A stretch of DNA of 40,686 nucleotides from a virus: IMG/VR virus record IMGVR_UViG_3300005534_000007. The stretch is one strand, 5' to 3'. This document shows, in pieces, positions 5,515-37,558 of the stretch. The notes beneath the pieces are model-generated. The model saw only the letters and a list, made by a program, of their open reading frames with translations. It searched no databases and was not told the origin of the DNA. Every line of letters starts with the position of its first letter. Position 1 is the stretch's first letter. The position numbers and the translations under genes are program-made.

Positions 5515-7506
5515 TCACATTTGACCAGAAGCTTGTGGTGTATTTTGCTGCTCAGGTCCTTTCATCCCACCCATAATTTCAGCCAGAAACTTATTAGCAC
5601 CTGTGCGTCTCTCTACATCCTGTTTCTCAGCCTCTTCTCGCCCTTGAATCTGCTGGCTTTCCATATCCATTTTCATCTGTTGATACTGAGTCTCTATTTC
5701 ACCAAATCTTGCCATGTTTTCTAGCATAGAAGTAAGAGCTGCTTGTTTCTCTTTAAGAGACATGGCCCTATTACGCTCTATCATGCTCAGTCTTTCCTCG
5801 TACAAACCTAGGTTGCTTTCGCTACGACTATGATCTTCTCGTGCCCTTGCAATATTAGCCGCAGCCTTAGACATAAGTTCTTTAAGTTTAACTTCTTCAA
5901 ATGAATGCTTAATATTCATTTCTTCTTGTTGAGCTGCTTGCATTTGTTGTTCTTGTTGCTGTAAGAACTCGATGATTTCGGCTTTTCCTGTGATATTTAG
6001 CTTAGGAATAATCCTAGAAGGAGGGAATACCTCGCGCCCAAACATCTGATTGATTTCAAGCATGTTCTGTGCCTGCAAATTCTGCTGCGTTGGGGTAAGA
6101 TCAGCTTCTTCTACAAGCACCTGGCACTTGGCAAAGATTTTCGAATAGAAATGCGGTGTTGGCTCTTCTCCGATTAGTAGTTCTACCTTAGCCGCATTCC
6201 AATTGTTAATGGCGATCTGAAGTAGTCTTTCCCCAAGCAACTTATCCGATAGATCCCATTGATCGAAATACTTTTGAAGTACCATCAAATTGGCCGCTTG
6301 TTTCAGCATGGTGGTAAGAGAAGACGCCTGCTTATCATTTTGTGCAGACCAGTTCTCCAAATCAATGCCAGATGTGCCAAAAATCAAGGTGCGTAATCTA
6401 TCCGCCAAAGCAAAGTCTGATTCTGGAACAGAATTAGGCACGATCTTCTCGACATCGGTCATTTCGTAGCCTTCATTCACGATAACATCCCAGCCTTGAC
6501 CAGATTTCTTCATGTTATCTTCATTGGCCACAGAGCCAACTTTTCGCTTCCATCCAGCATTGATTGTAGCTTCTTTCTGATCATGGGAAATAATGATCTG
6601 GCGATTCATCAAGTAGTTTGAGTCGCGCATAGTGCGCACTAGACCTCGGCACCTTAGATCATAGTAGTTATTGTGCGGTTCATAATTCCAATAATAGGGG
6701 ATAAACGGGCAATCATCAAAACCAAGGGGATTATCACCTTGGAACATGAGCTGATCATTGAGGACAACGGCTAATTTCCATGTAGGAACTTCAACCGTTA
6801 CTTCCTCAAGATCGGGAATGGCCTGCATAATCATTTCTAGGTTTTCATCACCACCTGCGAAATCGAAGAACTGATTACGCCTTGGTGAGTAGAGACGTTT
6901 CTTTTTGCGCTTCCATTTATACCATACATAAGACAAGACCATAAGGTCATTGCGCGCCATGTTGTAGTTTTCTGGTAAGAAATAAAAGCTTCCATATCTT
7001 TGAGGAGATCCAGCCATTGGAGCGATCTTTTCTAGCTTATCAGGAAATCTAGATTCGGCTTCTTTCTTGGATACATACTCTTGACACCAAACGAATTGCG
7101 CATCGCTCATATCAGGGGAGCGGAAGTAGGGATCTACCAGAAAGCTATTATATTCCCATACCTTCAATTTAAGTTCACCTTGCGCCGGGTCATTACCCAT
7201 GAAATCAAGGTAAGGCTGAGCTAGTACCATGCCAGTTATGCAGGCTTGTTCCTTGGCCCTGGACTTCTGTTCATGGATTGCACCAGCATTAGCAACGCTT
7301 GTGATAAGCTTCGTATATTGATCGGTAGTTTGAGGATCAGCACCCTCTGTTGGAGTATAAATCCACTGCTTTCTATGCTGTCTTTCATAACCAGTAACCA
7401 TATTGACTGGCTGCTGGAGAAGATTGAAATAGAAGTTCTGCGCCGATGAAGATGGAGTAATACCAAAGTATCGGTTTATATACTGCTGAGCGCCTGCATA
7501 GAACAA
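5515..7506 (-). CDS. Portal protein with long C-terminal coiled-coil (barrel-like) extension
   Basis: 663 aa from a TTG start. Size, position near terL, and a Q/E-rich helical tail of about 150 aa support the call. The frame stays open for 53 further codons upstream (see finding). Confidence 0.75.
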   Translation of the reverse strand: MFYAGAQQYINRYFGITPSSSAQNFYFNLLQQPVNMVTGYERQHRKQWIYTPTEGADPQTTDQYTKLITSVANAGAIHEQKSRAKEQACITGMVLAQPYLDFMGNDPAQGELKLKVWEYNSFLVDPYFRSPDMSDAQFVWCQEYVSKKEAESRFPDKLEKIAPMAGSPQRYGSFYFLPENYNMARNDLMVLSYVWYKWKRKKKRLYSPRRNQFFDFAGGDENLEMIMQAIPDLEEVTVEVPTWKLAVVLNDQLMFQGDNPLGFDDCPFIPYYWNYEPHNNYYDLRCRGLVRTMRDSNYLMNRQIIISHDQKEATINAGWKRKVGSVANEDNMKKSGQGWDVIVNEGYEMTDVEKIVPNSVPESDFALADRLRTLIFGTSGIDLENWSAQNDKQASSLTTMLKQAANLMVLQKYFDQWDLSDKLLGERLLQIAINNWNAAKVELLIGEEPTPHFYSKIFAKCQVLVEEADLTPTQQNLQAQNMLEINQMFGREVFPPSRIIPKLNITGKAEIIEFLQQQEQQMQAAQQEEMNIKHSFEEVKLKELMSKAAANIARAREDHSRSESNLGLYEERLSMIERNRAMSLKEKQAALTSMLENMARFGEIETQYQQMKMDMESQQIQGREEAEKQDVERRTGANKFLAEIMGGMKGPEQQNTPQASGQM

Positions 7507-8712: not shown

Positions 8713-8879
8713 TTATCTTTTGTTTTAAAGAACCTGGTAAGCAAGACAATTAGAGCACCCATTAAAAAAATGATCACATCCCCGCATAAAATAACGCATA
8801 GAAAAGTCCAGGAAATTTCTATAATATCCAGTAGTTTTAACGTCATCAAAATGAGAAAAAGAAAGCTGAAGAATCCCAT
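8709..8879 (-). CDS. Small two-TM membrane protein (56 aa, holin-like topology)
   Basis: Hand translation: MGFFSFLFLILMTLKLLDIIEISWTFLCVILCGDVIIFLMGALIVLLTRFFKTKDK. TAATG overlap with the terL stop and ATGA overlap with the next ORF. Confidence 0.45.
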   Translation of the reverse strand: MGFFSFLFLILMTLKLLDIIEISWTFLCVILCGDVIIFLMGALIVLLTRFFKTKDK

Positions 8880-10204
8880 TAATAGTCCCTCCTAGTGGGT
8901 TCATATTTATTTACGTTAGAAAAGCTAGCAGAGTCATGCGAGATTTTCTTACTTCCTAGCGTACGCCCAAAATCATCATCATCGACGTAATACTTAGGAA
9001 CCCTATGAGTAGCAATAGCATAGCGCAGAGCGTCAACACTGTGATCATTTTCTTTGAGAGGCTGATCGTATCCTTTTTTGGCAGCTTTCGGGTCCCAGAC
9101 ATAGCTTTGCACCTCGCGTATCAAGTTCTTGCATTCTGAGCAGATGAAAAGATTGCCCTTCTTCATCTCGGATGTCATGATTTGTATGCCGTTTTCCACA
9201 TCGTTATTAGCATGGACGGCGTGCAGGCCGCGCCTTTGTAGCTCTAGTTGGAACGCTGCCGCACTTGGGTCAATGTAGATATTTCTGACGGCGTAGGGTT
9301 CTAAGAATGCCTGCACATCATTTGCAAACTCGCTATTGGTCTTCTGTCGCCCCTCTTTCTTTGGATCTGGGTCCCAGTAGTATTCCTTCTCTACCCACAT
9401 ACAGCGCCCTGTTTGCGTATATTTCCCGCTTGTTACTCCTATCAGAAGACAGCAGAACGGATTAACAGTGCCGTAATCGATAGAAGCAATCCAATATTCA
9501 GCAGTAGCAGGAGGCCTATCCACCACATATAGCTTGCGATCAAAAAAGTCGAAAATGGCGCCTTCTGCCAAGCACCAAAGACCAAGATAATTTCTTTGAT
9601 AAAATAAGCCAGAAACAGAATCGCGAATACGCTGCTTATAAGACTCATCAACATAGGGGTTATCATCCAATGTAAAGTGCAGGGCGTAATAGTTCGGATC
9701 GCCAGCTTCCGCCTTATCAATCCACTGCTTGATTTTATGATCGGGGTGGCTCGGGTTCATGGACGCAAAGCCCATGGAATGCGGCGTCGATAGACGCGTA
9801 TCGATCATGTCGATAATCGACTCGGGGTAAAGCGTCATCTCGTCGCAGTAGCATAGGCTCATGGTGAGTCCCTGGAAGCTGCCGATAGCCCCCTCATCCT
9901 TGGCGCCGAGTATATTGATTACTTTGTCCTTGAAGTGCAGTTTTTTGCCAGACCAAGTGCAAAAAGGCCGATAGATCGAAAGCTCTGGCGACTCCATGAT
10001 AAGACGCACGACATTTCGATAAGCCGTGTCGAAAGTATGGCCCACGATGTATATCTTACTATCTGGACATTGCTCAGAGGCGTTTAAGAAGCGAAAGGCA
10101 TTCGCAACTGTTTTTCCAGTCCTCACAGATCCGTGGGCCAGATTCCAACGGGCTGTGCTGTTAAGGACAAATTCTAATTGCTTGGGTGAAAGGGGCTGTT
10201 CCAT
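8879..10204 (-). CDS. terL: Terminase large subunit
   Basis: 441 aa. Walker A is GSVRTGKT and Walker B is LCYCDE. Nuclease-domain acidic motifs are ASIDYG and ENDHSVDALRYA. Confidence 0.9.
   Translation of the reverse strand: MEQPLSPKQLEFVLNSTARWNLAHGSVRTGKTVANAFRFLNASEQCPDSKIYIVGHTFDTAYRNVVRLIMESPELSIYRPFCTWSGKKLHFKDKVINILGAKDEGAIGSFQGLTMSLCYCDEMTLYPESIIDMIDTRLSTPHSMGFASMNPSHPDHKIKQWIDKAEAGDPNYYALHFTLDDNPYVDESYKQRIRDSVSGLFYQRNYLGLWCLAEGAIFDFFDRKLYVVDRPPATAEYWIASIDYGTVNPFCCLLIGVTSGKYTQTGRCMWVEKEYYWDPDPKKEGRQKTNSEFANDVQAFLEPYAVRNIYIDPSAAAFQLELQRRGLHAVHANNDVENGIQIMTSEMKKGNLFICSECKNLIREVQSYVWDPKAAKKGYDQPLKENDHSVDALRYAIATHRVPKYYVDDDDFGRTLGSKKISHDSASFSNVNKYEPTRRDY
9003..9065. repeat. Conserved 63-nt core of the terL 3'-end duplication (copy 2, inside the functional terL)
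   Basis: Matches 8528..8590 with 4 mismatches. Confidence 0.85.
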
Positions 10205-15348: not shown

Positions 15349-15758
15349 AAGAACAATTAAATATTATTCTGCCCTGGCACCCAGAATCGGAAAAGCCCAG
15401 ACTACCGTTTGTGATTTGCACCAATGGAGAAGGGCATTATTGGATGGGGCAGTATGAAAATAAATATGCTATGGCTCATTGGTTAATCGCACAGCCGATT
15501 CATAAATATTCTTCAGATGGTTGGATACACGTAGATATAGCAATTGCACCTCTCGCCTGGTGTGATCCGACGGAGTTTGTGCCTTTTGAGAAGAGGAGAG
15601 AGGTGCATCAATGTGAGGGCACTACAGAATACGGCTCATATAAATGTGGTGAGAACGAAGATGGCACTTTCGTATGTACAGTTTTCGACGGTATGGAGAG
15701 AGCCCGGTTTGGCACCGAGGTATGCCCCTTCTGTGGGTATAAGGTACATAGAGAATGA
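15345..15758 (+). CDS. Hypothetical protein with C-terminal CPFCGYK zinc knuckle
   Basis: 137 aa from ATG 15345 (ATGA overlap). Its C-terminal domain is paralogous to ORF 15755..15934. Confidence 0.55.
   Translation: MKEQLNIILPWHPESEKPRLPFVICTNGEGHYWMGQYENKYAMAHWLIAQPIHKYSSDGWIHVDIAIAPLAWCDPTEFVPFEKRREVHQCEGTTEYGSYKCGENEDGTFVCTVFDGMERARFGTEVCPFCGYKVHRE
15372..15394. repeat. 23-nt exact direct repeat (copy 2)
   Basis: Identical to 15070..15092. Confidence 0.9.
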
Positions 15759-15934
15759 CAGAACTGTACAAAATTACAGAAACTATACAAGTTTTTGATC
15801 ATAAATGCCCAGGAGATTCTCAATGGGAAGTCAGGGAAACCGTGAATTCATACGTAGTATACCATAAAAATAACGGGACGGTACTTTTATGCGATTACTG
15901 TCCCTTCTGTGGATACAAAGCGGGTGAGAAATGA
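15755..15934 (+). CDS. 59-aa zinc-knuckle protein (below track cutoff)
   Basis: Hand translation: MTELYKITETIQVFDHKCPGDSQWEVRETVNSYVVYHKNNGTVLLCDYCPFCGYKAGEK. ATGA overlap upstream. Confidence 0.5.
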   Translation: MTELYKITETIQVFDHKCPGDSQWEVRETVNSYVVYHKNNGTVLLCDYCPFCGYKAGEK

Positions 15935-25250: not shown

Positions 25251-26084
25251 CTAGTTGATGATCCAATAGTCCACGGTGCTTGTGTCTGTTACCTGATTAG
25301 AGGTGATGATGAAAGAGACACCTGGAACGATGGATGCTCTATCCACATAGTAAGAAGCGGGCAATGTTATCGTCCCTAACGTATGGGTAGCAAAGAAGAA
25401 AAGGGAGCTGGCAGTAACGGCTGTAGTACTCACTGTCACAGTTCCTGCTGTCATTGCCCCGGAAGTTCCCACCGAAGCGTTCGTTCCAGTCTTGATATTC
25501 AACTTGTTGCCAGCAACATCGAGATTGAAATTGCCATTCAGTACGCTATAATTCCCACTCGTGTCTAGGAATGTGCCGTATGTGGGGACAGGAGTGTTGG
25601 CGCCTGGCGCGGCGGGTGCTAGGCCTGGAGCTAAGTTCGGATTTCCGTACCATGAAATATTGAGAGGACCTGTATTGCCGTTCCTATTGCCGACTGTGAC
25701 CTGTAGGTATTGCTGGCCGGTTACATTATCCTGTACTATCGAAAGATTGGAGAAAACGTCTTGATTGAGGAGAGAATTATTATTGAGAACTGTGAGGGAT
25801 GCCGTATTGTCTGAGGAGTGGGCATCGCAGCTGAAGGAGAGGGTATGGTTCCTGCCGGCTCCTGTGAAGCCAAGGAAGAATATACCGCTGATACAGAAGG
25901 CTGCTTGCGTGATTGCCAGGTAATAGACCCCATCAGCTGGGGTGTTGATGTTGGCGAATAGCACCCCGTTGAAGACGTTGAATACTGGCATCCCAGTCTG
26001 ACCGGTGATGGCAGATAGGGGGACGAGGGGATTGTTCTGCGTCGTAGCTGGTGACCCTGTGGGGCTAGATCCTGTATAAGCCAT
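25251..26084 (-). CDS. Tail fibre/receptor-binding protein (C-terminal domain shared with the 589-aa spike)
   Basis: 277 aa. The C-terminus ...VPGVSFIITSNQVTDTSTVDYWIIN parallels ...AGTSFQITSTNASDDNAVNWIIFN of ORF 28152..29921. Confidence 0.65.
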   Translation of the reverse strand: MAYTGSSPTGSPATTQNNPLVPLSAITGQTGMPVFNVFNGVLFANINTPADGVYYLAITQAAFCISGIFFLGFTGAGRNHTLSFSCDAHSSDNTASLTVLNNNSLLNQDVFSNLSIVQDNVTGQQYLQVTVGNRNGNTGPLNISWYGNPNLAPGLAPAAPGANTPVPTYGTFLDTSGNYSVLNGNFNLDVAGNKLNIKTGTNASVGTSGAMTAGTVTVSTTAVTASSLFFFATHTLGTITLPASYYVDRASIVPGVSFIITSNQVTDTSTVDYWIIN

Positions 26085-28151: not shown

Positions 28152-29921
28152 TTAGTTAAAAATTATCCAGTTTACGGCGTTGTCATCGCTTGCGTTTGTG
28201 GATGTAATCTGAAAGCTCGTCCCTGCAATTATGTTGTGGTAGCTAAGGCTACCGGAGTTGGCTAGGGTTCCGATGTATGTGAGAAATATCTTGGAGTTGT
28301 TGGTGACATTCGCCGTATTGACAGTCACTGATCCAGAAGATAAGAAAATTGTTCCAAGGCTTACGGGATCTCCAGAGAGACCAGTACCCACATTCAATGT
28401 GCCACCGGCTGGGACTGTCCACCCTCCCGATAAGTTCGACATAGAAGCAACGAGTAATCCTGATGCCCCGGGTATGCTTACAGATCCAGATCCTGTAGAA
28501 ATAAGTTGTATCTGAGAGTTGGCAGCCGTAGTTGTTAGATTTAGACCGACAGCATCTGTCGTGATCTGGCCAGTTACATTGCCACCAACGCCACCAATAG
28601 CAGTGAAGTTATTGTTGGCATCAATAACGACGCCGGTGTCCTTAAGCGTATTACCTCCCGTACCATTGAATGTGGGAACTGTGTTGTTGACGGAAGACGC
28701 AGGACCTGCAACACATCCCTTCGGCGTGACAAGTACGATAGAGGTGATAGTTCCAGAGATTGCGGTATTGGAAGGGAAGCTTACGGTATCGAGAGTGAGA
28801 GTTGCAGACGTAGATCCTGAAATCGCCGGATTATTCGGGCAATCAATAGTTGTATGCTCGATAAGGAAAGGTACTGAACTCGTGTAGACTATAGCCGATA
28901 ACCCATTTGTATTTAGGAAATTACATCCTGATACTATCGCGGCAGCTGTAGTCTGAACGGTCAAGGTAGCCGGGGTCGAGCATCCTTGCATATATAGAGA
29001 TCCACTCACAGCGACTATGGAACATGCAATTATCGAGTTGATGATAGTCACCGATCCTTCAGAGGTCATGGCACCAGTTGCGGGGCCAGCACCGATCACG
29101 GAGTTGGTTATATTCACAGCAGCCGGAGGAGAACCTCCCGTTATGTTCAAGATGCCGTTGGTCGTGCTTCCCACATCGAAACAGTTGTTGATGTAGAATC
29201 CGCCCGTCCAGCTGAAGGCAGTCACAACATAGCCATTGACGATTTCCCATAGGCAACCATTGAGAAACAGATTCACGGAAGAGGAAGATACGCCGAATAG
29301 GCTGCCAGAATTGACCGTGAAGTTGATGTTTCTAACGTTTATTGTACCGGTGCCACTGATCCCGTGATTGCCCACAACGATGACGTTAAGCGAGTTACCA
29401 ACTAGACTAATGCCTCCGGGAATCGATAGATTTTCTGTGTAAACTCCATCCTGAATGTAGACAGTAGCGTTTGGGGTAGCAGCATTGATCGCCGACTGTA
29501 TGGTCTGATATCCAGCTTTGCCAGCAGGTCCTACTACAAACGGAGTCACGGGGAAGCCACCGGCTGTAGCTGTTATGGTAAGAGTCGATCCTGATCCTGA
29601 TGTCGTGATTGTATTAGTACCTAGCACGTTGATATTTCCGGCCGTCGGCACGACAGCCGGACCAGTATTGCCGGTTAAAGTTTGGACCGCTACACTGGGG
29701 CCACCTTCAGCTACCCAATTGGCTGTCGTTTGGCCACTTACATTACTAAAAGAGGTGAGGGCATAAGTAGAATTTGCAATGGTGTTTACCCATCTCTTGC
29801 CAATTGGGTAGTTGATATCAGAAGTAGAAGGGTTTCTTACATCTAGATGAGGCGTTTGAACATTGAGAGGAGAAGCGCCAAATCCTGATGTGTAAGCCTG
29901 TACGCCTGGTTGAAAAGCCAT
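28152..29921 (-). CDS. Tailspike with right-handed beta-helix (pectate-lyase-like) domain; depolymerase candidate
   Basis: 589 aa with the shared N-terminal anchor. ATVYIQDGVYTENLSIPGGISLVGN and the following irregular ~22-aa repeats rich in N, G, V and I are typical of a parallel beta-helix. Confidence 0.6.
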   Translation of the reverse strand: MAFQPGVQAYTSGFGASPLNVQTPHLDVRNPSTSDINYPIGKRWVNTIANSTYALTSFSNVSGQTTANWVAEGGPSVAVQTLTGNTGPAVVPTAGNINVLGTNTITTSGSGSTLTITATAGGFPVTPFVVGPAGKAGYQTIQSAINAATPNATVYIQDGVYTENLSIPGGISLVGNSLNVIVVGNHGISGTGTINVRNINFTVNSGSLFGVSSSSVNLFLNGCLWEIVNGYVVTAFSWTGGFYINNCFDVGSTTNGILNITGGSPPAAVNITNSVIGAGPATGAMTSEGSVTIINSIIACSIVAVSGSLYMQGCSTPATLTVQTTAAAIVSGCNFLNTNGLSAIVYTSSVPFLIEHTTIDCPNNPAISGSTSATLTLDTVSFPSNTAISGTITSIVLVTPKGCVAGPASSVNNTVPTFNGTGGNTLKDTGVVIDANNNFTAIGGVGGNVTGQITTDAVGLNLTTTAANSQIQLISTGSGSVSIPGASGLLVASMSNLSGGWTVPAGGTLNVGTGLSGDPVSLGTIFLSSGSVTVNTANVTNNSKIFLTYIGTLANSGSLSYHNIIAGTSFQITSTNASDDNAVNWIIFN

Positions 29922-30028
29922 CGATAACCTTGGTTGCTATTGATGCCAATATATATAATTAAATATTTAATTTGAATATGCGTGAAAAAATTACTGTGTA
30001 AAATGTCACATGTTGTAAAAATAGGACC

Positions 30029-30229
30029 ATGGAAGAGAAAATAGTTAGGTTCAGAATCCCTCCTCAGCTATACAAACGTTACAAAGTCGTCTGCGTAAAG
30101 AAAGATCTTTCTATGCCAAAGCAGACGGCAGCATTGATACGCCAGTTTGTAGAAATATTAGAGGAAGAGATACGGGTGAAAGAACAACTTACATGGAACC
30201 CAAAGAATAATCAGAGACAAGCTGATTGA
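30029..30229 (+). CDS. Ribbon-helix-helix (Arc/CopG-like) DNA-binding protein
   Basis: 66 aa. KIVRFRIPPQLYKRYKVVCVKKDLSMPKQTAALIRQFVEIL fits a beta-strand followed by two helices. Confidence 0.6.
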   Translation: MEEKIVRFRIPPQLYKRYKVVCVKKDLSMPKQTAALIRQFVEILEEEIRVKEQLTWNPKNNQRQAD

Positions 30230-30236
30230 TTCAAAT
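30219..30236. repeat. 18-bp direct repeat (left copy) overlapping the RHH stop codon
   Basis: aagctgattgattcaaat is identical to 30806..30823. Confidence 0.9.
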
Positions 30237-30280
30237 ACGATTAAATTTTATAATGTTCAAAAAAAAATTAGGTTAATGAA

Positions 30281-30577
30281 ATGGGAATAGAAAATGGAAA
30301 ATTTGTGATAGCAAGAACCTACTCAGCTGGAGTTTTTGCAGGTATTCTAGAATCCAGGAATGGAAAAGAAGTTACACTGAAAGATGCTAGACGTATATGG
30401 TACTGGGCTGGGGCAGCTTCTTTATCTCAACTGGCGATGGAAGGAACATCTAAACCTTCAGAGTGTAAATTTCCATGTGCTGTAAACAAAGTCGAACTAT
30501 TAGAGGTCATAGAAATATTGGAATGCACACATACGTCTGAGAAAAGCATTATGGGAGTTCCGGTATGGAACCAATAG
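30281..30577 (+). CDS. Conserved phage protein of unknown function (DUF6948-like by memory)
   Basis: 98 aa. The motif ARTYSAGVFAG...ARRIWYWAGAASLSQLAMEGTSKPSECKF is recalled from many phage and prophage ORFs. Confidence 0.55.
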   Translation: MGIENGKFVIARTYSAGVFAGILESRNGKEVTLKDARRIWYWAGAASLSQLAMEGTSKPSECKFPCAVNKVELLEVIEILECTHTSEKSIMGVPVWNQ

Positions 30578-30801
30578 TATTAACATTCTCCGGCTACGGC
30601 TACGGCGACGGCTCCGGCCACGGCTCCGGCCACGGCGACGGCTCCGGCCAAGGCTCCGGCTCCGGCTACGGCTACGGCTACGGCTCCGGCTGCGGCTACG
30701 GCTCCGGCTACGGCTACGGCTACGGCGACGACTCCGGCCACGGCTACGGCCACGGCTACGGCTACGGCCACGGCTACGGCGACGGCTCCGGCCACGGCTA
30801 G
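30565..30801 (+). CDS. (X-Gly)35 repeat peptide rich in Tyr, Ser, His and Asp
   Basis: 78 aa: MEPIVLTF followed by 35 dipeptide units (13 YG, 10 SG, 6 HG, 3 DG, and one each of DD, QG and CG). The ATG overlaps the upstream ORF by 13 nt. Confidence 0.5.
   Translation: MEPIVLTFSGYGYGDGSGHGSGHGDGSGQGSGSGYGYGYGSGCGYGSGYGYGYGDDSGHGYGHGYGYGHGYGDGSGHG
30589..30798. repeat. Hexanucleotide tandem array (NNC-GGC) x35
   Basis: 210 nt, with 160/210 G+C by direct count. Codons used are GGC for Gly, TAC for Tyr, TCC for Ser, CAC for His and GAC for Asp, plus single CAA (Gln) and TGC (Cys). Confidence 0.95.
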
Positions 30802-30805
30802 ATAA

Positions 30806-30823
30806 AAGCTGATTGATTCAAAT
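30806..30823. repeat. 18-bp direct repeat (right copy)
   Basis: Identical to 30219..30236. The copies are spaced 587 bp apart. Confidence 0.9.
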
Positions 30824-30837
30824 GTCCAAATGTGGCA

Positions 30838-30855
30838 TCCTTTCTTAGGAAAGGA
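30838..30855 (+). promoter_or_regulatory. Hairpin sequestering the SD of the 28-aa ORF
   Basis: TCCTTTC-ttag-GAAAGGA. The 3' arm is part of AAAGGAG, 5 nt before the ATG at 30862. Confidence 0.4.
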
Positions 30856-30861
30856 GTTTAC

Positions 30862-30948
30862 ATGTGGTTAATTTGGACCGTTTTATTTCTGAAGTGCGGA
30901 TTTATAACTTTCTTGGCCGGGAATTTCATCTTTGGATGGGGTGAGTAG
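30862..30948 (+). CDS. 28-aa hydrophobic peptide
   Basis: Hand translation: MWLIWTVLFLKCGFITFLAGNFIFGWGE. Strong SD (AAAGGAG). Confidence 0.35.
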   Translation: MWLIWTVLFLKCGFITFLAGNFIFGWGE

Positions 30949-30953
30949 ATAGA

Positions 30954-32612
30954 TCACTTAGGAGATTCTTTCAGTTCGTTCTCCAGTTCATAAAATCCTT
31001 TTTCGGCTATAGCGAATCGTCCTGCTTTTAGATCATCTATAGCGTCTTTCCAAACGATTATAAGTGTTGGTTTGTCAAGAAGCATTTTCAGTGCATTCTT
31101 GGCTATCTCCCAGCCTGCACTCAACTTAGCAAGTTCTGGACTGAGAACATATTTTCCGGCTAGTTTTATTAGGTCTCGAAAACCAGCCGATTCTGCCCTT
31201 TTTAGAAGAGAATATGGTTTCTGGATCGACATAAAATCCTTTATCAATCCTTCGAAGTTTTTGAAATTTTCCTTTCCTAGTAACCTGATAAACGGCCTCC
31301 TAAGATTTTCATTCCTCTTGTCAAGAAGTTTTGCTATTTCTTTGAACTCAATTTTTTCTTTCCCAAATGGTTTTGAAATCTGTTCCTGAACAAATTCGTA
31401 ATCTTTCAAATGGCCCCATTGCTTATTCTGTTCTTTGAAAAGACTCAAAAATTGACTGTCAGGAAGAATAGTCTCATAGACATCTTCGAGAGCCTTATTA
31501 TATTCTAATAGAGCATCTCTCTTGCCCTTATTGAATCCTTTGGATTTCCCAGGTTCGAAATAGGTGGCTAATTCTTGATTGTTTTTTCTGAATTGTTCTA
31601 TTGATTGTGGAAGAGAAAATTGTTTATCTGCATTAGATACACGTTTTATAAGTTTTCCAAATTCTCTTTTAAAAGCTGATTCACTTTCTGAAAGCGTGAT
31701 GCCTTTTGTATTTTGAACACTATCTTTTAATCTCTTCTTCATGAAATTCTGAAGAGTGTTCTTGGTTATTTTGATAGGAAGATCGGCAGCAGATTTTTCG
31801 AGATTTTCAAACCCCTGGTTTAGTTTTTCGGCATATTGTATAGGGTTTTCTCTTATATCTTTGTAAGTGGGACTTTCTGATAAAATCTTGTCTGAAATAT
31901 TTTTAAAGTCCGCTTCCACTTTTTCGTTTATTATCTTATGCCTGGCAGCAGATAATTCCTTAGGCTTTTTAGTGCTTTCATATCTTCTAGTTGGTAAGCC
32001 TGAAGGTTTTGTTTCTTTGGCTATTGAAAATGGCATTTGAGGTTTAGGAGTTTTTGCAGATAAACCACCTATGCCTAATGCTATAGGATCTGCAAGTACT
32101 TCGGGAATTCCAGCGGCTTGGAGTCCCTGCGAAGAGGCCCCTGCAACGGCTCCTCCCACTGCTTTTTGTTGAATATTGCCTGGACTTATCTTCGAGCCCA
32201 AACCGGCTAGTCTAAGAGCTTTTTGATACCATTCTTTGGGCTCTAGTGGAACTCCAGTTCTTTCCTCTATTTCTCTAGCGATGTTAGAGACAGTTGGCAC
32301 ATACTTTAGGGCATTCCCGGCAGCCTCCATATACTTCTCTTCATCGAATGGGACGCCTTCTCTTTCCGAGACTTTTTTAATATGCTCTATTTCTTCCGGA
32401 TCTAAGACCTCTCCCATCCCCAGTAATTGCCAAGCAGAAGCAGCCAAACCAGGTGCTGTACCTTCTACAGCTCCTAACGCGGGTTGTACAGACGTTCGTA
32501 GAATTTTCTTACCGGTGGATTCTTCTGCGGACTTTAGATCATCCCATCGAAGAGAATTTGTTTGTGGAGAAGATAATGGTTTTAGGTCATCCCACTTCAA
32601 TTGCTTCGCCAT
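30954..32612 (-). CDS. Internal virion/ejection protein candidate (large, helical, Gly/Ala-rich segments)
   Basis: 552 aa, the last gene of the tail and internal-protein run. Has a duplicated (K/R)WDDLK motif at the N-terminus and hydrophobic Gly/Ala stretches. Confidence 0.45.
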   Translation of the reverse strand: MAKQLKWDDLKPLSSPQTNSLRWDDLKSAEESTGKKILRTSVQPALGAVEGTAPGLAASAWQLLGMGEVLDPEEIEHIKKVSEREGVPFDEEKYMEAAGNALKYVPTVSNIAREIEERTGVPLEPKEWYQKALRLAGLGSKISPGNIQQKAVGGAVAGASSQGLQAAGIPEVLADPIALGIGGLSAKTPKPQMPFSIAKETKPSGLPTRRYESTKKPKELSAARHKIINEKVEADFKNISDKILSESPTYKDIRENPIQYAEKLNQGFENLEKSAADLPIKITKNTLQNFMKKRLKDSVQNTKGITLSESESAFKREFGKLIKRVSNADKQFSLPQSIEQFRKNNQELATYFEPGKSKGFNKGKRDALLEYNKALEDVYETILPDSQFLSLFKEQNKQWGHLKDYEFVQEQISKPFGKEKIEFKEIAKLLDKRNENLRRPFIRLLGKENFKNFEGLIKDFMSIQKPYSLLKRAESAGFRDLIKLAGKYVLSPELAKLSAGWEIAKNALKMLLDKPTLIIVWKDAIDDLKAGRFAIAEKGFYELENELKESPK

Positions 32613-34717: not shown

Positions 34718-37558
34718 TTAAGCCAGTAATTGTGAGGGACTTACGTCTAGTATTATACTATGCAATTCTATCTCAGAGAATTGGTTATTAAATCCCTGAT
34801 CTCTCATCTGCTGGTCATTCATGGTAAATCCTATCTGAACTGTATCTCCAATGAGAGATGTGTTCATCCGGTGCCATATCTGTGACTGCTGAGAGGCTGT
34901 GGGAGTCTGCAAGTTGATATTCGCAGGTGTTAGTCCCAAATTCGTGCTCTCTGGGCATGTATAAAGAACCGTGCTGTAGATGAGAGAATTATTCTGAGAA
35001 TCAGGACTTGGAACGATTTGAACCGGGTAAGGGAATTCAGGATTATTATACGGCACATTCGATTGGCTGAGGAATATTAGGAGGGTGATCTGAGATATGG
35101 CGGTAGTCGTGAGAAGATATTGCTGCGGGCCAAGGCGTGTCTTTCTGGCCATATCCCAGGCCACAGGGAATTGCTTTGTCTTAATTTGAGGGACGTACAT
35201 TCTCGTGATGAGACCGCCTCCAGAATAAGTCAGTCCTGGGATGATTGTTGGATCAAGAATAAACGTATTGGCATCTTGCACAAATACAGAAAATATCTTT
35301 CCATTTACTTCTGAAGCGACAGTTCCTATGCACCCGCTTATAGTTATGTAATCGCCAGTAGATAGGCAGTGATTGGGGGCTGTTACGACGCTGTTGCTGA
35401 ACGCTCGGATATAGAGAGAAGTTCCCTCGCTTGTTCCCTCCGTGCTGGAAAGCCTGACCAGGACAAATCCCTGTTGGTTTCCAGCTATTATCAGCGGCTG
35501 CAAAAGAGTCGATGATGAAGAATCCCATGCGGCATTCCACTGTTCCCAGCTACGATATCTTGTACCGATAGTCTGCCATGTATATCCGGATTGGGGTCTA
35601 AATGATCCATACGTGGTGTAGGATTCGTTAAAAATAGCCCAGGAGTTATCTCTATAGTTATATTGAAGCGTGCGCGTAGGAAATTCGTACACTGCTACAT
35701 TGCTACTGTTGCTACGGTAGGTGAAATATATCCATTCACTGATATAATCCCTCTGCGCACAGACGCGTTCGGTGCCGTTTTGTAGGAGGCTGAATTGGAA
35801 GACCTCGTCGGGAATTTCCAGATCTATCCTACGAACTTGCGTTTGTCCAGTGAGAATGATGCCACGAGAGCCAATTGATAGAACGCCCTCATCCAATATT
35901 ACTGATGAGAAAGTGCTGCTCGATCCAAGCTCTGAATTGATGATAAATAGATTGAACGGAATTATATCATTTCCACTAAATGCTAGGCGTACCTGCTGCT
36001 TATCAAAGCCGAGTATGAGTACGTCTTCATTGATGCCGACTGTGTTGATCGCTTGATCAAGACCGGCTGCAATAAAGCCACCAAACCCAGTCACATCCTC
36101 TGCATAAGCGAGGGGAGTTGCCGTTTGGTTTACCGGTGTTAGAATTGGCCTAAATACGGTGTTCGCGAATGTGGGATCGCCCGTGAATGAAGCTGTGTAA
36201 TAGGGAGTCCCATTTTGGCTATAGATGATTGTGTCAGGGAGATACACTTGGGAGTTGGCAGATGACGTCTGAAGTACTGGACCTATGAATAACAGGCGGT
36301 CCTTGAATGGGACGATTGCCCGTGCACCAATCAGGTAATATTGAGCTGTTGGTAAGTCCTCTATGAAGTCAGGCAGATTAGATATTGGAGGGGCGAAGTT
36401 GACCCACCCAAGATTTCCATTTAGCACCGGACTAGTTGGACTACCATTAGTGGCATCACCATCATACCATCGCAGGCAGTCCTTCGTGACGTCTGAGCGA
36501 TTTGTCAGATATTGAATTATGCCTGGGGTGTATGTATCAGTAGCGATCATGGCATAGGGAAAAGTGATTGTGAGGGTCTTGGTGGCTAGAGGAGGAGTAT
36601 TTGGCGAACACGCCGTCACATAACCGGTTTGTAGATTCAAAGTAGTTGCGTTCGCTGGTGTTGTGGATGTAAATTCATTGACAAAGACAAAGTCGCCAAC
36701 TATCAGAGGACAATTGGTGATGACTACAACAAGAGTTGTAGCTGTCTGAGAAGAAACAGTTATCGTGCTGGCGGGTGCGAACTGCATTCCAACATTGGTT
36801 GGATCGAAAGGAATTTCTATGCCATTCGTTGCCCACAAGGCTCCCTGATAATTCACGGTCCAAAATTGCTGATAATCTTCTCCATTCCAAGAAGTAGGGG
36901 TCACTGTGGCTTTTTGAACATAGCTTGGATAATTGGTGGGAAATGTCGCGGGAGGGTTTTTGTAGAAACTTACATCATAGATCAGGGCAGGAAATGTCGT
37001 AGTGATATTGTACGCATAAACAGTATCGAATCCAAGTGTCCCAGGAAATTGGGTTGAATTCGATATGAAATCCTCAAGACCCATCACGGGCAGATCTGGA
37101 TAGTATAGGAAAGTGGCGGTAACGGTGTTTCCAGCCTGTGCAGGAATAAGGATGGCTCCGGTCGCATAGTTTATGGTATTGGGACCGCTTGTCCCAGTGG
37201 GTGTCAAATAACCATCTCTGGTGGGATCTGTATAGGTGGTTGGGCCGCCAGAGGCCACTAGAGTCACGCTCCCAGGAACAATATTGCCGTCGACTTGCAG
37301 GGAGAAGGCGGTCAAGATATTTCCATTGCCTCCCCCGTCCAACGTTAGAACTAAAGCGCCAGGATTATACGATAGGGAAGTGGAATTAAAGTATCTGGTC
37401 AGCCTGCCGAGAAATTGTGTTCCCCTTTTTCTTTTAACTCTGGAGCGCCATTGGTAGGCATTTACCAATACAGGAAAGGAATCATTATCGATGTTGAATG
37501 GCGTTACGTCATTTCGAAGACCTTTCGTGATAGGACCAATGACTATTTTCTCGCCCAT
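34718..37558 (-). CDS. Large tail structural protein (nozzle/tubular-B-like candidate) carrying an FCCH-type SH3-like insert
   Basis: 946 aa, the largest virion gene. The insert VVTAPNHCLSTGDYITISGCIGTVASEVNGKIFSVFVQDANTF resembles the repeats in ORF 187..1332. Confidence 0.5.
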   Translation of the reverse strand: MGEKIVIGPITKGLRNDVTPFNIDNDSFPVLVNAYQWRSRVKRKRGTQFLGRLTRYFNSTSLSYNPGALVLTLDGGGNGNILTAFSLQVDGNIVPGSVTLVASGGPTTYTDPTRDGYLTPTGTSGPNTINYATGAILIPAQAGNTVTATFLYYPDLPVMGLEDFISNSTQFPGTLGFDTVYAYNITTTFPALIYDVSFYKNPPATFPTNYPSYVQKATVTPTSWNGEDYQQFWTVNYQGALWATNGIEIPFDPTNVGMQFAPASTITVSSQTATTLVVVITNCPLIVGDFVFVNEFTSTTPANATTLNLQTGYVTACSPNTPPLATKTLTITFPYAMIATDTYTPGIIQYLTNRSDVTKDCLRWYDGDATNGSPTSPVLNGNLGWVNFAPPISNLPDFIEDLPTAQYYLIGARAIVPFKDRLLFIGPVLQTSSANSQVYLPDTIIYSQNGTPYYTASFTGDPTFANTVFRPILTPVNQTATPLAYAEDVTGFGGFIAAGLDQAINTVGINEDVLILGFDKQQVRLAFSGNDIIPFNLFIINSELGSSSTFSSVILDEGVLSIGSRGIILTGQTQVRRIDLEIPDEVFQFSLLQNGTERVCAQRDYISEWIYFTYRSNSSNVAVYEFPTRTLQYNYRDNSWAIFNESYTTYGSFRPQSGYTWQTIGTRYRSWEQWNAAWDSSSSTLLQPLIIAGNQQGFVLVRLSSTEGTSEGTSLYIRAFSNSVVTAPNHCLSTGDYITISGCIGTVASEVNGKIFSVFVQDANTFILDPTIIPGLTYSGGGLITRMYVPQIKTKQFPVAWDMARKTRLGPQQYLLTTTAISQITLLIFLSQSNVPYNNPEFPYPVQIVPSPDSQNNSLIYSTVLYTCPESTNLGLTPANINLQTPTASQQSQIWHRMNTSLIGDTVQIGFTMNDQQMRDQGFNNQFSEIELHSIILDVSPSQLLA

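Follow-up and report, generated by a model that had tools for sequence, protein, structure and literature searches.

A Conserved Phage Gene Pair Joins a DUF6948 Protein of Predicted Sm-Like Fold to a Rapidly Varying Glycine-Dipeptide Repeat Peptide

Analysis of the 40,686-nt viral record IMGVR_UViG_3300005534_000007, a nearly complete, circularly permuted phage genome of 44% GC (called the window here, meaning the whole stretch of DNA at its full length), and of related loci showed that a gene of the Pfam family DUF6948 and the glycine-dipeptide (Gly-X) repeat open reading frame (ORF) that overlaps its 3' end are a conserved two-gene unit and a widespread phage module. In the window, the DUF6948 gene (98 amino acids [aa]; 30281 to 30577, plus strand) is the first gene of this conserved cassette, and the Gly-X ORF (78 aa; 30565 to 30801, plus strand), which overlaps it by 13 nt, is the second. 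The initial annotation had placed both in a self-contained island of four plus-strand genes, together with an upstream ribbon-helix-helix (RHH) regulator and a downstream 28-aa hydrophobic peptide. All four ORFs and the 13-nt overlap are present as described, but the four do not hold together as one module: none of the 80 viral loci searched has the RHH-like gene or the hydrophobic ORF, and a direct repeat brackets the two-gene cassette.

The association of DUF6948 with Gly-X was examined at 80 viral loci (L004 to L083) and 80 loci from species-representative genomes (L086 to L165), with 164 loci counted in total. A Gly-X ORF was found directly downstream of DUF6948, on the same strand, in 154 of the 155 evaluable loci, a recurrence far beyond chance; nine other loci are cut by a contig end, and one has only a degenerate Gly-rich ORF elsewhere. 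The expectation that homologs of the 98-aa protein would be linked to Gly-X repeats was thus borne out, while the parallel expectation of a linked RHH gene was not (80 viral loci). The genome loci come from metagenome-assembled genome bins and contigs labelled Acidobacteriota, Planctomycetota, Bacillota, Pseudomonadota, Bacteroidota, Cyanobacteria, candidate phyla radiation (CPR), and others, and those on contigs of several hundred kilobases or on megabase-scale chromosomes are most likely prophages. Among 119 unique Gly-X peptides, 77 are encoded with an overlap of exactly 13 nt at the end of DUF6948, the start codon is ATG in 116, and position 4 of the leader, which has the form M-E-x-I/V/L, is Ile, Val, or Leu in 84. 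At several loci, among them L075 and L169, a gap separates the two genes, and the Gly-X gene has its own ribosome-binding site (RBS). Two to four Gly-X genes follow a single DUF6948 gene in tandem at L008 (5197-5490 and 5529-5816) and L062 (5263-6396); the two copies at L008 have the same leader, MASINNG, and lie ahead of a RecT gene.

The two parts also occur as one protein. Natural in-frame DUF6948-GlyX fusions are seen in P0220, P0274, P0277, P0280, P0281, P0361, P0363, and P0365, the reverse order GlyX-DUF6948 in P0268 and in the profile phrog_18306, and a tripartite DUF6948-GlyX-third domain arrangement in P0293. Cultured carriers of the pair include the Pectobacterium phages Taid, Ymer, and relatives, in which it lies on the opposite strand amid tail genes. 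The Gly-X ORF is present and unannotated in Iodobacter phage PhiPLPE (L168, 1164-1409), is annotated "fibroin heavy chain-like" in Ralstonia phage NK-7 (L169, 2153-2566), and has been called in the wrong, MAMAMA, frame in Chlorobiaceae phage CV-1-33 (L002, 4292-4537).

In some phages of gut Firmicutes, Gly-X links DUF6948, or the leader alone, to a conserved third domain of about 155 aa (L138, 6267-6830; L144, 6237-7049; MT836871, 2369-2809; MT835900, 8338-8784; and P0293) with the motifs AHGET and W-H-x-x-L-T-G-S-C-x-x-G-R. This domain is rare among the loci, has no match in Pfam, PHROGs, or the Protein Data Bank (PDB), and has a pLDDT of 55 to 68 in an AlphaFold2 (AF2) model of the tripartite protein. 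In Riemerella phages CRP5 and CRP6 it follows a leucine-rich repeat (LRR) N terminus, and the gene is annotated "ribonuclease inhibitor" because of that N terminus.

That the DUF6948 and Gly-X genes are translationally coupled is well supported by the arrangement of their signals. In the window, the coupling signal (30553 to 30567, plus strand) consists of a GGGAG Shine-Dalgarno (SD) sequence at 30553-30557 that lies 7 nt before the ATG of the Gly-X ORF, and the conserved codons for G-V-x-V-W at the C terminus of DUF6948 supply both the SD and the ATG. The predicted product has a 9-residue leader, MEPIVLTFS, followed by (Gly-X)34-Gly, so that the alternating X-Gly polymer of the initial annotation is confirmed as 34 hexamers and a final GGC. 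The underlying hexanucleotide array, (GGC-NNC) x34 plus the final GGC (30592 to 30798, plus strand), has a GC content of 76% in a 44% GC genome and a Tandem Repeats Finder score of 259 to 278. Hexamer positions 1 and 3 are invariant and positions 2 and 6 have one change each; nearly all variation falls at positions 4 (T23/C7/G4) and 5 (A24/C9/G1).

Codon usage separates the conserved peptide from the DNA that encodes it. All 34 Gly codons of the hexamers in the window are GGC, compared with 29% among the Gly codons of the window's long ORFs, and a single Gly codon makes up at least 90% in 96 of 142 arrays but in only 2 of the 142 adjacent DUF6948 genes. The preferred Gly codon differs between arrays (GGC in 104, GGT in 25, GGG in 8, and GGA in 5), as does the dominant third base of the X codons (C in 89 and T in 51), and Gly-X is kept throughout, no other reading frame yielding a conserved product; the amino acid pattern, and not the DNA, is therefore what is conserved. 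Taken with the fusions in both orders, these synonymous differences therefore indicate that the repeat is translated and is a functional partner of DUF6948.

The X residues are dominated by Ser (30.5%), Tyr (22%), and Asp (22%), with Asn at 4%, Phe at 3%, His at 2.4%, Cys at 2%, and Lys plus Arg below 2%. The 119 unique peptides have a median length of 82 aa, and the medians for the repeat core are a net charge of -8, 49% Gly, 14% aromatic residues, and about 0 basic residues. An AF2 model of a natural fusion predicts the Gly-X segment to be disordered (pLDDT 25 to 45). Aromatic residues are reported to be strongly underrepresented in the low-complexity regions of prokaryotes and phages (PMC6821194), and a conserved Tyr-rich dipeptide repeat is therefore atypical.

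At the codon level, nearly all X residues are Tyr (TAC) or its single-step neighbors at codon positions 1 and 2, namely, Asp, His, Asn, Ser, Cys, and Phe; a pyrimidine is the last base in 91% of X codons, and synonymous third positions are near invariant within each array although X varies. Block amplification explains part of this pattern, and selection for X diversity is possible. Two other ideas were considered. A diversity-generating retroelement, suggested by the variation at positions 1 and 2 of the NNC codons, was set aside since the window has no second (template) copy of the array, although not every ORF was scanned for reverse transcriptase. A link to tRNA and queuosine, given that Tyr, Asp, His, and Asn are read from NAY codons, is unsupported, Ser being the commonest X.

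The 98-aa protein matches DUF6948 (PF22253) over its full length in the profile search that had been recommended for it (E = 4.1e-31; 107.4 bits against a cutoff of 27; profile positions 2 to 85 of 85), and its homologs carry precomputed PF22253 assignments. The family comprises at least 8000 clusters at 90% identity and 1832 clusters at 50% identity (E <= 1e-3); among the matches listed, the source name, where given, is "hypothetical protein." The AF2 model of the protein alone, built with 54 sequences, is confident (pLDDT, 94.4; pTM, 0.84) and consists of strands at residues 8-13, 18-27, and 30-39, a helix at 48-54, strands at 68-73 and 76-81, and a helix at 84-91, which together make a strongly bent barrel of five beta-strands that can be superposed on Sm proteins. 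Nearly all of the best 50 PDB matches listed by Foldseek are Sm/LSm chains or complexes containing them, including the Lsm1-7 complex, archaeal SmAP1, and AF-Sm1 with poly-U, and one is a NatC entry (E = 3.5e-3 to 2e-2; TM scores of 0.45 to 0.60 normalized to the query and 0.41 to 0.72 to the target; best match, E = 3.5e-3 and TM 0.53/0.71). Structural matches in BFVD are DUF6948 proteins (TM up to 0.94) and a few phage proteins named "Sm-like" or "RNA binding." By this model, DUF6948, a domain of roughly 95 aa, has an Sm-like fold; membership in the Sm family is not claimed. We found no paper on DUF6948 or PF22253 or on its pairing with a Gly-X gene, and literature searches on phage Gly-rich, Sm-like, Hfq-like, dipeptide-repeat, and fibroin-like proteins turned up nothing on the combined module, in line with the original impression that no function had been described. 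DUF6948 is catalogued in Pfam without a function, and its Gly-X partner is apparently undescribed.

We propose, with a probability that we put at roughly 35%, that the Sm-like DUF6948 core and the acidic, aromatic, disordered Gly-X tail form one unit that acts on RNA or single-stranded DNA. A folded, probably oligomeric core would be provided with a low-complexity acidic and aromatic tail in trans, or by fusion in some phages; the short hydrophobic leader (M-E-x-I/V/L) might dock the peptide on the core, and the complex would work on RNA or single-stranded DNA early in infection. The tail could be a polyanionic, Tyr-rich mimic of nucleic acid that serves as an autoregulator or competitor, as do the tails of Hfq and single-stranded DNA-binding protein (SSB), or it could be a multivalent "sticker" that concentrates the complex, in the manner of LSm4- or FUS-type low-complexity domains. 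Gly-Arg repeat tails occur on SmD1, SmD3, SmB, and LSm4, the Hfq of Moraxellaceae has a long Gly-rich tail, and the C-terminal acidic tip of Escherichia coli Hfq and the tail of SSB compete with nucleic acid. Gene neighborhoods bear on the same question: the fetched flanks of 42 of the first 85 loci contain at least one of a set of recombination or replication genes (AAA_24 [Sak4-like], YqaJ exonuclease, ERF, RecT, DnaB, DUF669, and VRR-NUC), which lie upstream on the same strand in 30 of the 42, and PhiPLPE, Taid, and CV-1-33 have such neighbors likewise. This usual location of the pair therefore favors nucleic acid transactions over a membrane or toxin function.

Several observations weigh against a role of the core and tail on nucleic acid. 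The structural match to Sm is modest (E of about 4e-3; TM of about 0.5 normalized to the query), and the model is without the N-terminal Sm helix and has a helix inserted between strands 3 and 4. Sm1 and Sm2 motifs are lacking, Pfam at E values up to 1 gives only DUF6948 and no LSM family, and neither Sm nor Hfq chains turn up in a profile search of PDB sequences. With a median net charge of +1 and a pI of about 8, the core is close to neutral, unlike the many RNA binders that are strongly basic, and the AF2 model of a natural fusion leaves the tail undocked. The association with recombination genes extends to only about half of the loci, and in the window and in Taid the pair lies amid tail genes rather than early genes; the placement seen in the window is the minority case.

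Closely related phages differ in their arrays. L022 and L025, about 99% identical over 4.4 kb, are distinguished by a clean 108-nt in-frame array indel, and L036 and L088, 99.96% identical over 5.4 kb, have arrays of at least 207 nt and of 93 nt, respectively; since short-read assemblers can collapse repeats, such differences may reflect real polymorphism or assembly collapse. Contigs end within 400 nt after DUF6948 in 33 of 164 loci and start within 400 nt before it in 12, and these breaks at the array are probably due to the failure of assemblers on tandem repeats. Circular phage contigs described as complete tend to open at the Gly-X gene when they carry the pair, and the European Nucleotide Archive (ENA) contig of the phage studied here (L084; 40,761 nt) has its end inside the Gly-X repeat. 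It is well supported that the array turns over fast by slippage in 6-nt in-frame units while selection keeps the peptide pattern. A more tentative and rather doubtful extension is that the pair represents a hitherto unrecognized, pan-bacterial class of phage system in which a slippage-hypervariable dipeptide-repeat effector depends on a dedicated Sm-like adaptor for its handling. The length of the array and the choice of X (Ser, Tyr, Asp, His, Asn, Cys, or Phe) would then be continually retuned, so as to manipulate a conserved process of the host or to escape its recognition. The pair would in that case be a programmable low-complexity effector in prokaryotic viruses, without a characterized counterpart to our knowledge.

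The pair also has features of a mobile cassette. In the window, a 24-nt direct repeat has its first copy at 30213 to 30236 (plus strand), over the 3' end of the RHH-like gene with its stop codon, and its second at 30800 to 30823 (plus strand), starting at the Gly-X stop codon. The copies are identical at 22 of 24 positions (92%), share the 17-nt exact core AGCTGATTGATTCAAAT, and bracket exactly DUF6948 and Gly-X; this core has only these two occurrences in the window even when three mismatches are allowed. Exact flanking repeats of at least 15 nt are present at 12 of 119 loci, compared with 1 of 214 displaced controls, and the repeats of different loci are unrelated in sequence and often contain an RBS and ATG. 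The direct repeat looks like a target duplication from cassette insertion, which suggests that the pair may move as a cassette that duplicates its target junction. Read in the Gly-X frame past the TAG, the second copy would encode I-K-A-D-stop, an echo of the R-Q-A-D-stop at the C terminus of the RHH-like protein.

Mobility and rapid variation would also suit a counterdefense decoy, the best placed of the rival explanations and in our judgment an unlikely one. The acidic, regularly spaced Gly-X polymer, as a mimic of nucleic acid or a decoy substrate, would titrate an immune sensor, nuclease, or protease of the host, with DUF6948 serving as its chaperone or as an adaptor for its delivery, and the changes that slippage brings to array length and X residues would be the mark of an arms race. 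The strongly negative peptide with almost no basic residues, its rapid turnover in length and sequence between flanks that are at least 99% identical, the focus of variation on the two X-defining codon positions, the cassette-like mobility with flanking direct repeats, the location in an accessory-gene slot in the window, and the multiple tandem Gly-X genes of L008 and L062 would all be in keeping with such a role. Set against these are the lack of a match to PADLOC or to any annotated antidefense family and the predicted disorder of the peptide, known DNA mimics being folded. The range of hosts, from Firmicutes to Acidobacteria to CPR, also points to a common bacterial target rather than to a patchily distributed defense system.

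The setting of the cassette in the window is best described as an accessory-gene slot of a P22-like podovirus, with variable cargo, between internal-protein and fiber genes. This description is well supported, as is the division of the slot into a lineage-specific RHH-like head gene, a mobile two-gene cassette, and an unconserved hydrophobic ORF. In a distant relative (L085), the same position holds a different opposite-strand island that encodes an SPFH (SPFH/band-7) protein, a helix-turn-helix (HTH) protein, and a transmembrane/coiled-coil protein (5714-7478). In L166 (5173-6048) and L167 (1064-1714), a homolog of the RHH-like gene heads a plus-strand island amid large minus-strand genes, and the cargo consists of two to five small paralogs, each with one transmembrane segment and a coiled coil, with no DUF6948. 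These other islands uphold the earlier view that the genes are accessory cargo and not virion parts, and the cargo of the relatives may represent membrane-acting morons, with superinfection exclusion as a possible function. The immI region of P22 (arc, mnt, ant, and sieA) sits between ejection gene 16 and tailspike gene 9, a position to which we take the site of the island to correspond; the island therefore probably occupies a known kind of accessory slot in such a virion gene layout.

The RHH-like gene (66 aa; 30029 to 30229, plus strand), the first gene of the island and its presumed regulator, had been labelled an Arc/CopG-type RHH protein. In favor of this label, Pfam RHH_10 matches below its cutoff (15.9 bits against 27; E = 0.016), and the pattern KIVRFRIP-PQLYKRYKVVCVKK-DLS-MPKQTAALIRQFVE fits, by eye, the beta-strand/Pro/helix/turn/helix order of a beta-alpha-alpha fold. 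Against it, an hhalign comparison of a three-member RHH-like alignment with CopG and Arc sequences, entered by hand rather than taken from a database, was negative (probabilities of 0.9 and 0.8), and searches of NCBIfam and of PDB sequences gave no match. The RHH assignment is thus at most suggestive. Only two homologs, those at L166 and L167, are present among 5.8 billion clusters. A candidate sigma-70-like promoter upstream of the DUF6948 gene (TTGATT-17-TATAAT; 30226 to 30254, plus strand; 10 of 12 consensus matches, and identified by consensus match only) has a -10 region whose TATAATGTT / GATAATGTT element recurs after the RHH homolog in L167 (about 1030-1040), and this conserved region suggests that the cargo promoter may be controlled by the regulator of the slot.

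At the other end of the island, the 28-aa hydrophobic ORF (30862 to 30948, plus strand) is an unconserved putative gene with no homolog in the 80 viral loci; an alternative GTG start at 30832 would extend it to 38 aa. An RNA hairpin (30815 to 30879, plus strand; -25 kcal/mol; z = -3.09) covers its SD (AGGAAAGGAG) and AUG, and the buried SD noted in the first reading of the sequence is thereby confirmed. The hairpin could equally be a 3'-end structure of the DUF6948/Gly-X bicistron; no run of T follows it, and no terminator is predicted there. The ORF is perhaps left over from the small membrane proteins with which relatives fill the slot. In a search of L004 to L083, in which loci L086 to L165 were not included, neither the RHH-like gene nor the hydrophobic ORF was found, the only match being L084, which is the same phage.

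It is in this slot that an exclusion or toxin-antitoxin-like island, made up of a regulator, small effectors, and a membrane peptide, would have to be sought, as had been suggested at the outset. The opposite-strand location with its own AT-rich upstream region and promoter-like sites, the small membrane proteins found at the slot in relatives, and the presence of sieA in the equivalent immI region of P22 lend this idea some plausibility. Yet the RHH-like gene and the hydrophobic ORF are not linked to DUF6948 and Gly-X in the 80 viral loci searched, the RHH homologs carry other cargo, and the 28-aa ORF is unconserved with its start hidden in a hairpin. PADLOC gave 0 matches for the four products at E values up to 1, NCBIfam gave none that is relevant, and no toxin family was matched. 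We therefore find the toxin, exclusion, or defense role that had been envisaged for the island improbable.

The island is flanked by genes of the opposite strand. The large terminase (8879-10204), the P22-like portal (5515-7506; P22_portal, E = 1.2e-40), and a weak capsid match (1334-2323) are all on the minus strand, in an operon that crosses the ends of the window and runs on to about 25251, and "virion operon" is therefore a reasonable label. In the PHROGs and Pfam searches, the virion genes recognized were the terminase, the P22-like portal, the weak capsid match, and fiber C-terminal domains only. Next to the island lie a fiber/spike gene (589 aa; 28152 to 29921, minus strand), with K1-lyase_C at residues 522-588 (E = 1.7e-17), and, convergent with the island, a 552-aa gene of the virion operon (30954 to 32612, minus strand); both are context outside the cassette. 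The 552-aa gene had been labelled an ejection protein, a label that rests only on synteny in a genome with a P22-like portal; it has zero matches in Pfam, PHROGs, and the phage database searched and one relative, with 44% identity, in L085. An AT-rich divergent intergenic region (29922 to 30028) separates the fiber gene from the island and contains minus-strand promoter-like sites at 30002-29975 and 29976-29948, which are consensus matches only.

The placement of the pair between tail genes in the window and in Taid raises the possibility of a virion-associated, silk-like Gly-X fiber, forming a decoration or whisker, with DUF6948 as its assembly chaperone. (Gly-X)n is indeed the crystalline motif of silk fibroin, and the NK-7 gene carries the annotation "fibroin heavy chain-like." In about half of the loci, however, the pair has recombination or replication genes nearby, most of them in its own orientation, and in the window the pair is opposite in strand to the virion operon. 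The high Asp content and predicted disorder are unfit for a packed sheet, and in some phages (P0293) the repeat is a linker to another domain. A structural role in the virion is accordingly very improbable.

Less credible still is a programmed -1 frameshift within the 13-nt overlap that would yield one fused protein and no free peptide. The Gly-X frame is -1 relative to DUF6948, the overlap is conserved, and genuine fused genes exist. The overlap region (...GGA GTT CCG GTA TGG AAC CAA TAG), however, has no slippery X-XXY-YYZ heptamer; the conserved SD, the ATG (116 of 119), and the leader with its hydrophobic fourth residue are a signature of independent initiation; and the Gly-X genes of several loci, L075 and L169 among them, are gapped from DUF6948 and have their own RBS. 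Frameshifting was rejected on the missing slippery site and the conserved start signal.

The slimmest chance is that the array is a DNA-level element, such as an origin, a site for packaging or recombination, or a G-rich structure, with an incidental ORF: its high GC content and the 33 contigs that end shortly after DUF6948 could be read in this way, but synonymous positions change freely from array to array without loss of Gly-X, conservation extends to the start codon, leader, and stop, in-frame protein fusions exist, the failure of assemblers at tandem repeats accounts for the contig ends, Rfam covariance models gave 0 matches over 29800-31100 at E values up to 1, and the array RNA folds no better than shuffled sequence (z = +1.8), on which RNA structure of the array was rejected. 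The remaining probability belongs to something else.

Some further features of the window lie outside the island. A second fiber/spike-like gene (25251-26084, minus strand) also ends in a K1-lyase_C-type domain, like the gene at 28152-29921, and these paired ends suggest two receptor-binding proteins with similar C-terminal modules. Two virion-operon proteins (187-1332 and 34718-37558, minus strand) match the Pfam family E1_FCCH (ubiquitin-activating enzyme FCCH; E = 2.4e-8 and 1.7e-3, respectively), which here is probably a small beta-barrel decoration or adhesion domain. Tandem Repeats Finder also reported short tandem duplications at 15754-15790 and 31661-31700, with periods of 19 and 18 and about two copies each.

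DUF6948 is a very large phage family without an assigned function, and existing annotations mostly miss its obligate partner gene, call it in a wrong frame, or mislabel it as fibroin-like. Recognition of the pair offers a testable entry into widespread viral dark matter, and three cultured phage groups carry it. If the core and tail do cooperate, the pair would represent, in viruses of prokaryotes, a counterpart of the eukaryotic Sm/LSm proteins that bear Gly-repeat tails and a simple model for how a disordered tail supplied in trans modulates a nucleic acid-binding ring. In practical terms, the arrays break short-read assemblies and mislead gene callers.

Several known systems share parts of this design. 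The slot in the window appears to resemble the P22 immI region in being headed by a presumed regulator, a small protein of RHH-like sequence features, in lying between putative internal-protein genes and a fiber or spike gene of a phage with a P22-like portal, and in having cargo that varies between relatives; it differs in having no detectable Arc/Mnt homology and no antirepressor gene, and its cargo is DUF6948 and Gly-X. Silk fibroin (GAGAGS/GAGAGY) and FUS-type [G/S]Y[G/S] domains also alternate Gly with residues that include Ser and Tyr and are encoded by codon-homogeneous arrays that evolve by unequal exchange or slippage, whereas the Gly-X peptides are only 25 to 270 aa long, rich in Asp, and without Ala, and are cytoplasmic phage products obligately paired with a folded partner. 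Simple-sequence contingency loci are comparable as coding tandem arrays of short units whose lengths differ between near-identical genomes; with a 6-nt unit, slippage alters the length of the Gly-X peptide and never the reading frame, and the array therefore cannot act as an on/off switch.

Closer parallels are found among nucleic acid-binding proteins. SSB, with its OB-fold core, Gly-rich linker, and acidic tip, resembles the pair, as modeled, in combining a small beta-barrel core with a Gly-rich, disordered, acidic tail, and the pair often lies beside ERF, RecT, exonuclease, and helicase genes; unlike SSB, DUF6948 has a fold that matches Sm, with no OB-fold among the top structural matches listed, and Gly-X has a strict dipeptide periodicity and no terminal tip of the D-D-D-I-P-F type. 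With Sm, LSm, and Hfq proteins that bear Gly-rich tails, the pair shares a small bent beta-barrel core that superposes on Sm and a disordered tail that alternates Gly with a second type of residue and is covalently fused in some phages. It differs from them in the Sm1/Sm2 motifs and N-terminal helix that DUF6948 lacks, in the extra helix between strands 3 and 4, and in a tail made acidic and aromatic by its Ser/Tyr/Asp residues, where theirs is basic (Arg). The phage tail is, moreover, usually a separate, coupled polypeptide encoded by a hypervariable array, within a module that is phage borne and cassette-like. The closest known design is nonetheless that of an Sm-type core with a glycine-repeat tail, realized here in a different sequence family.

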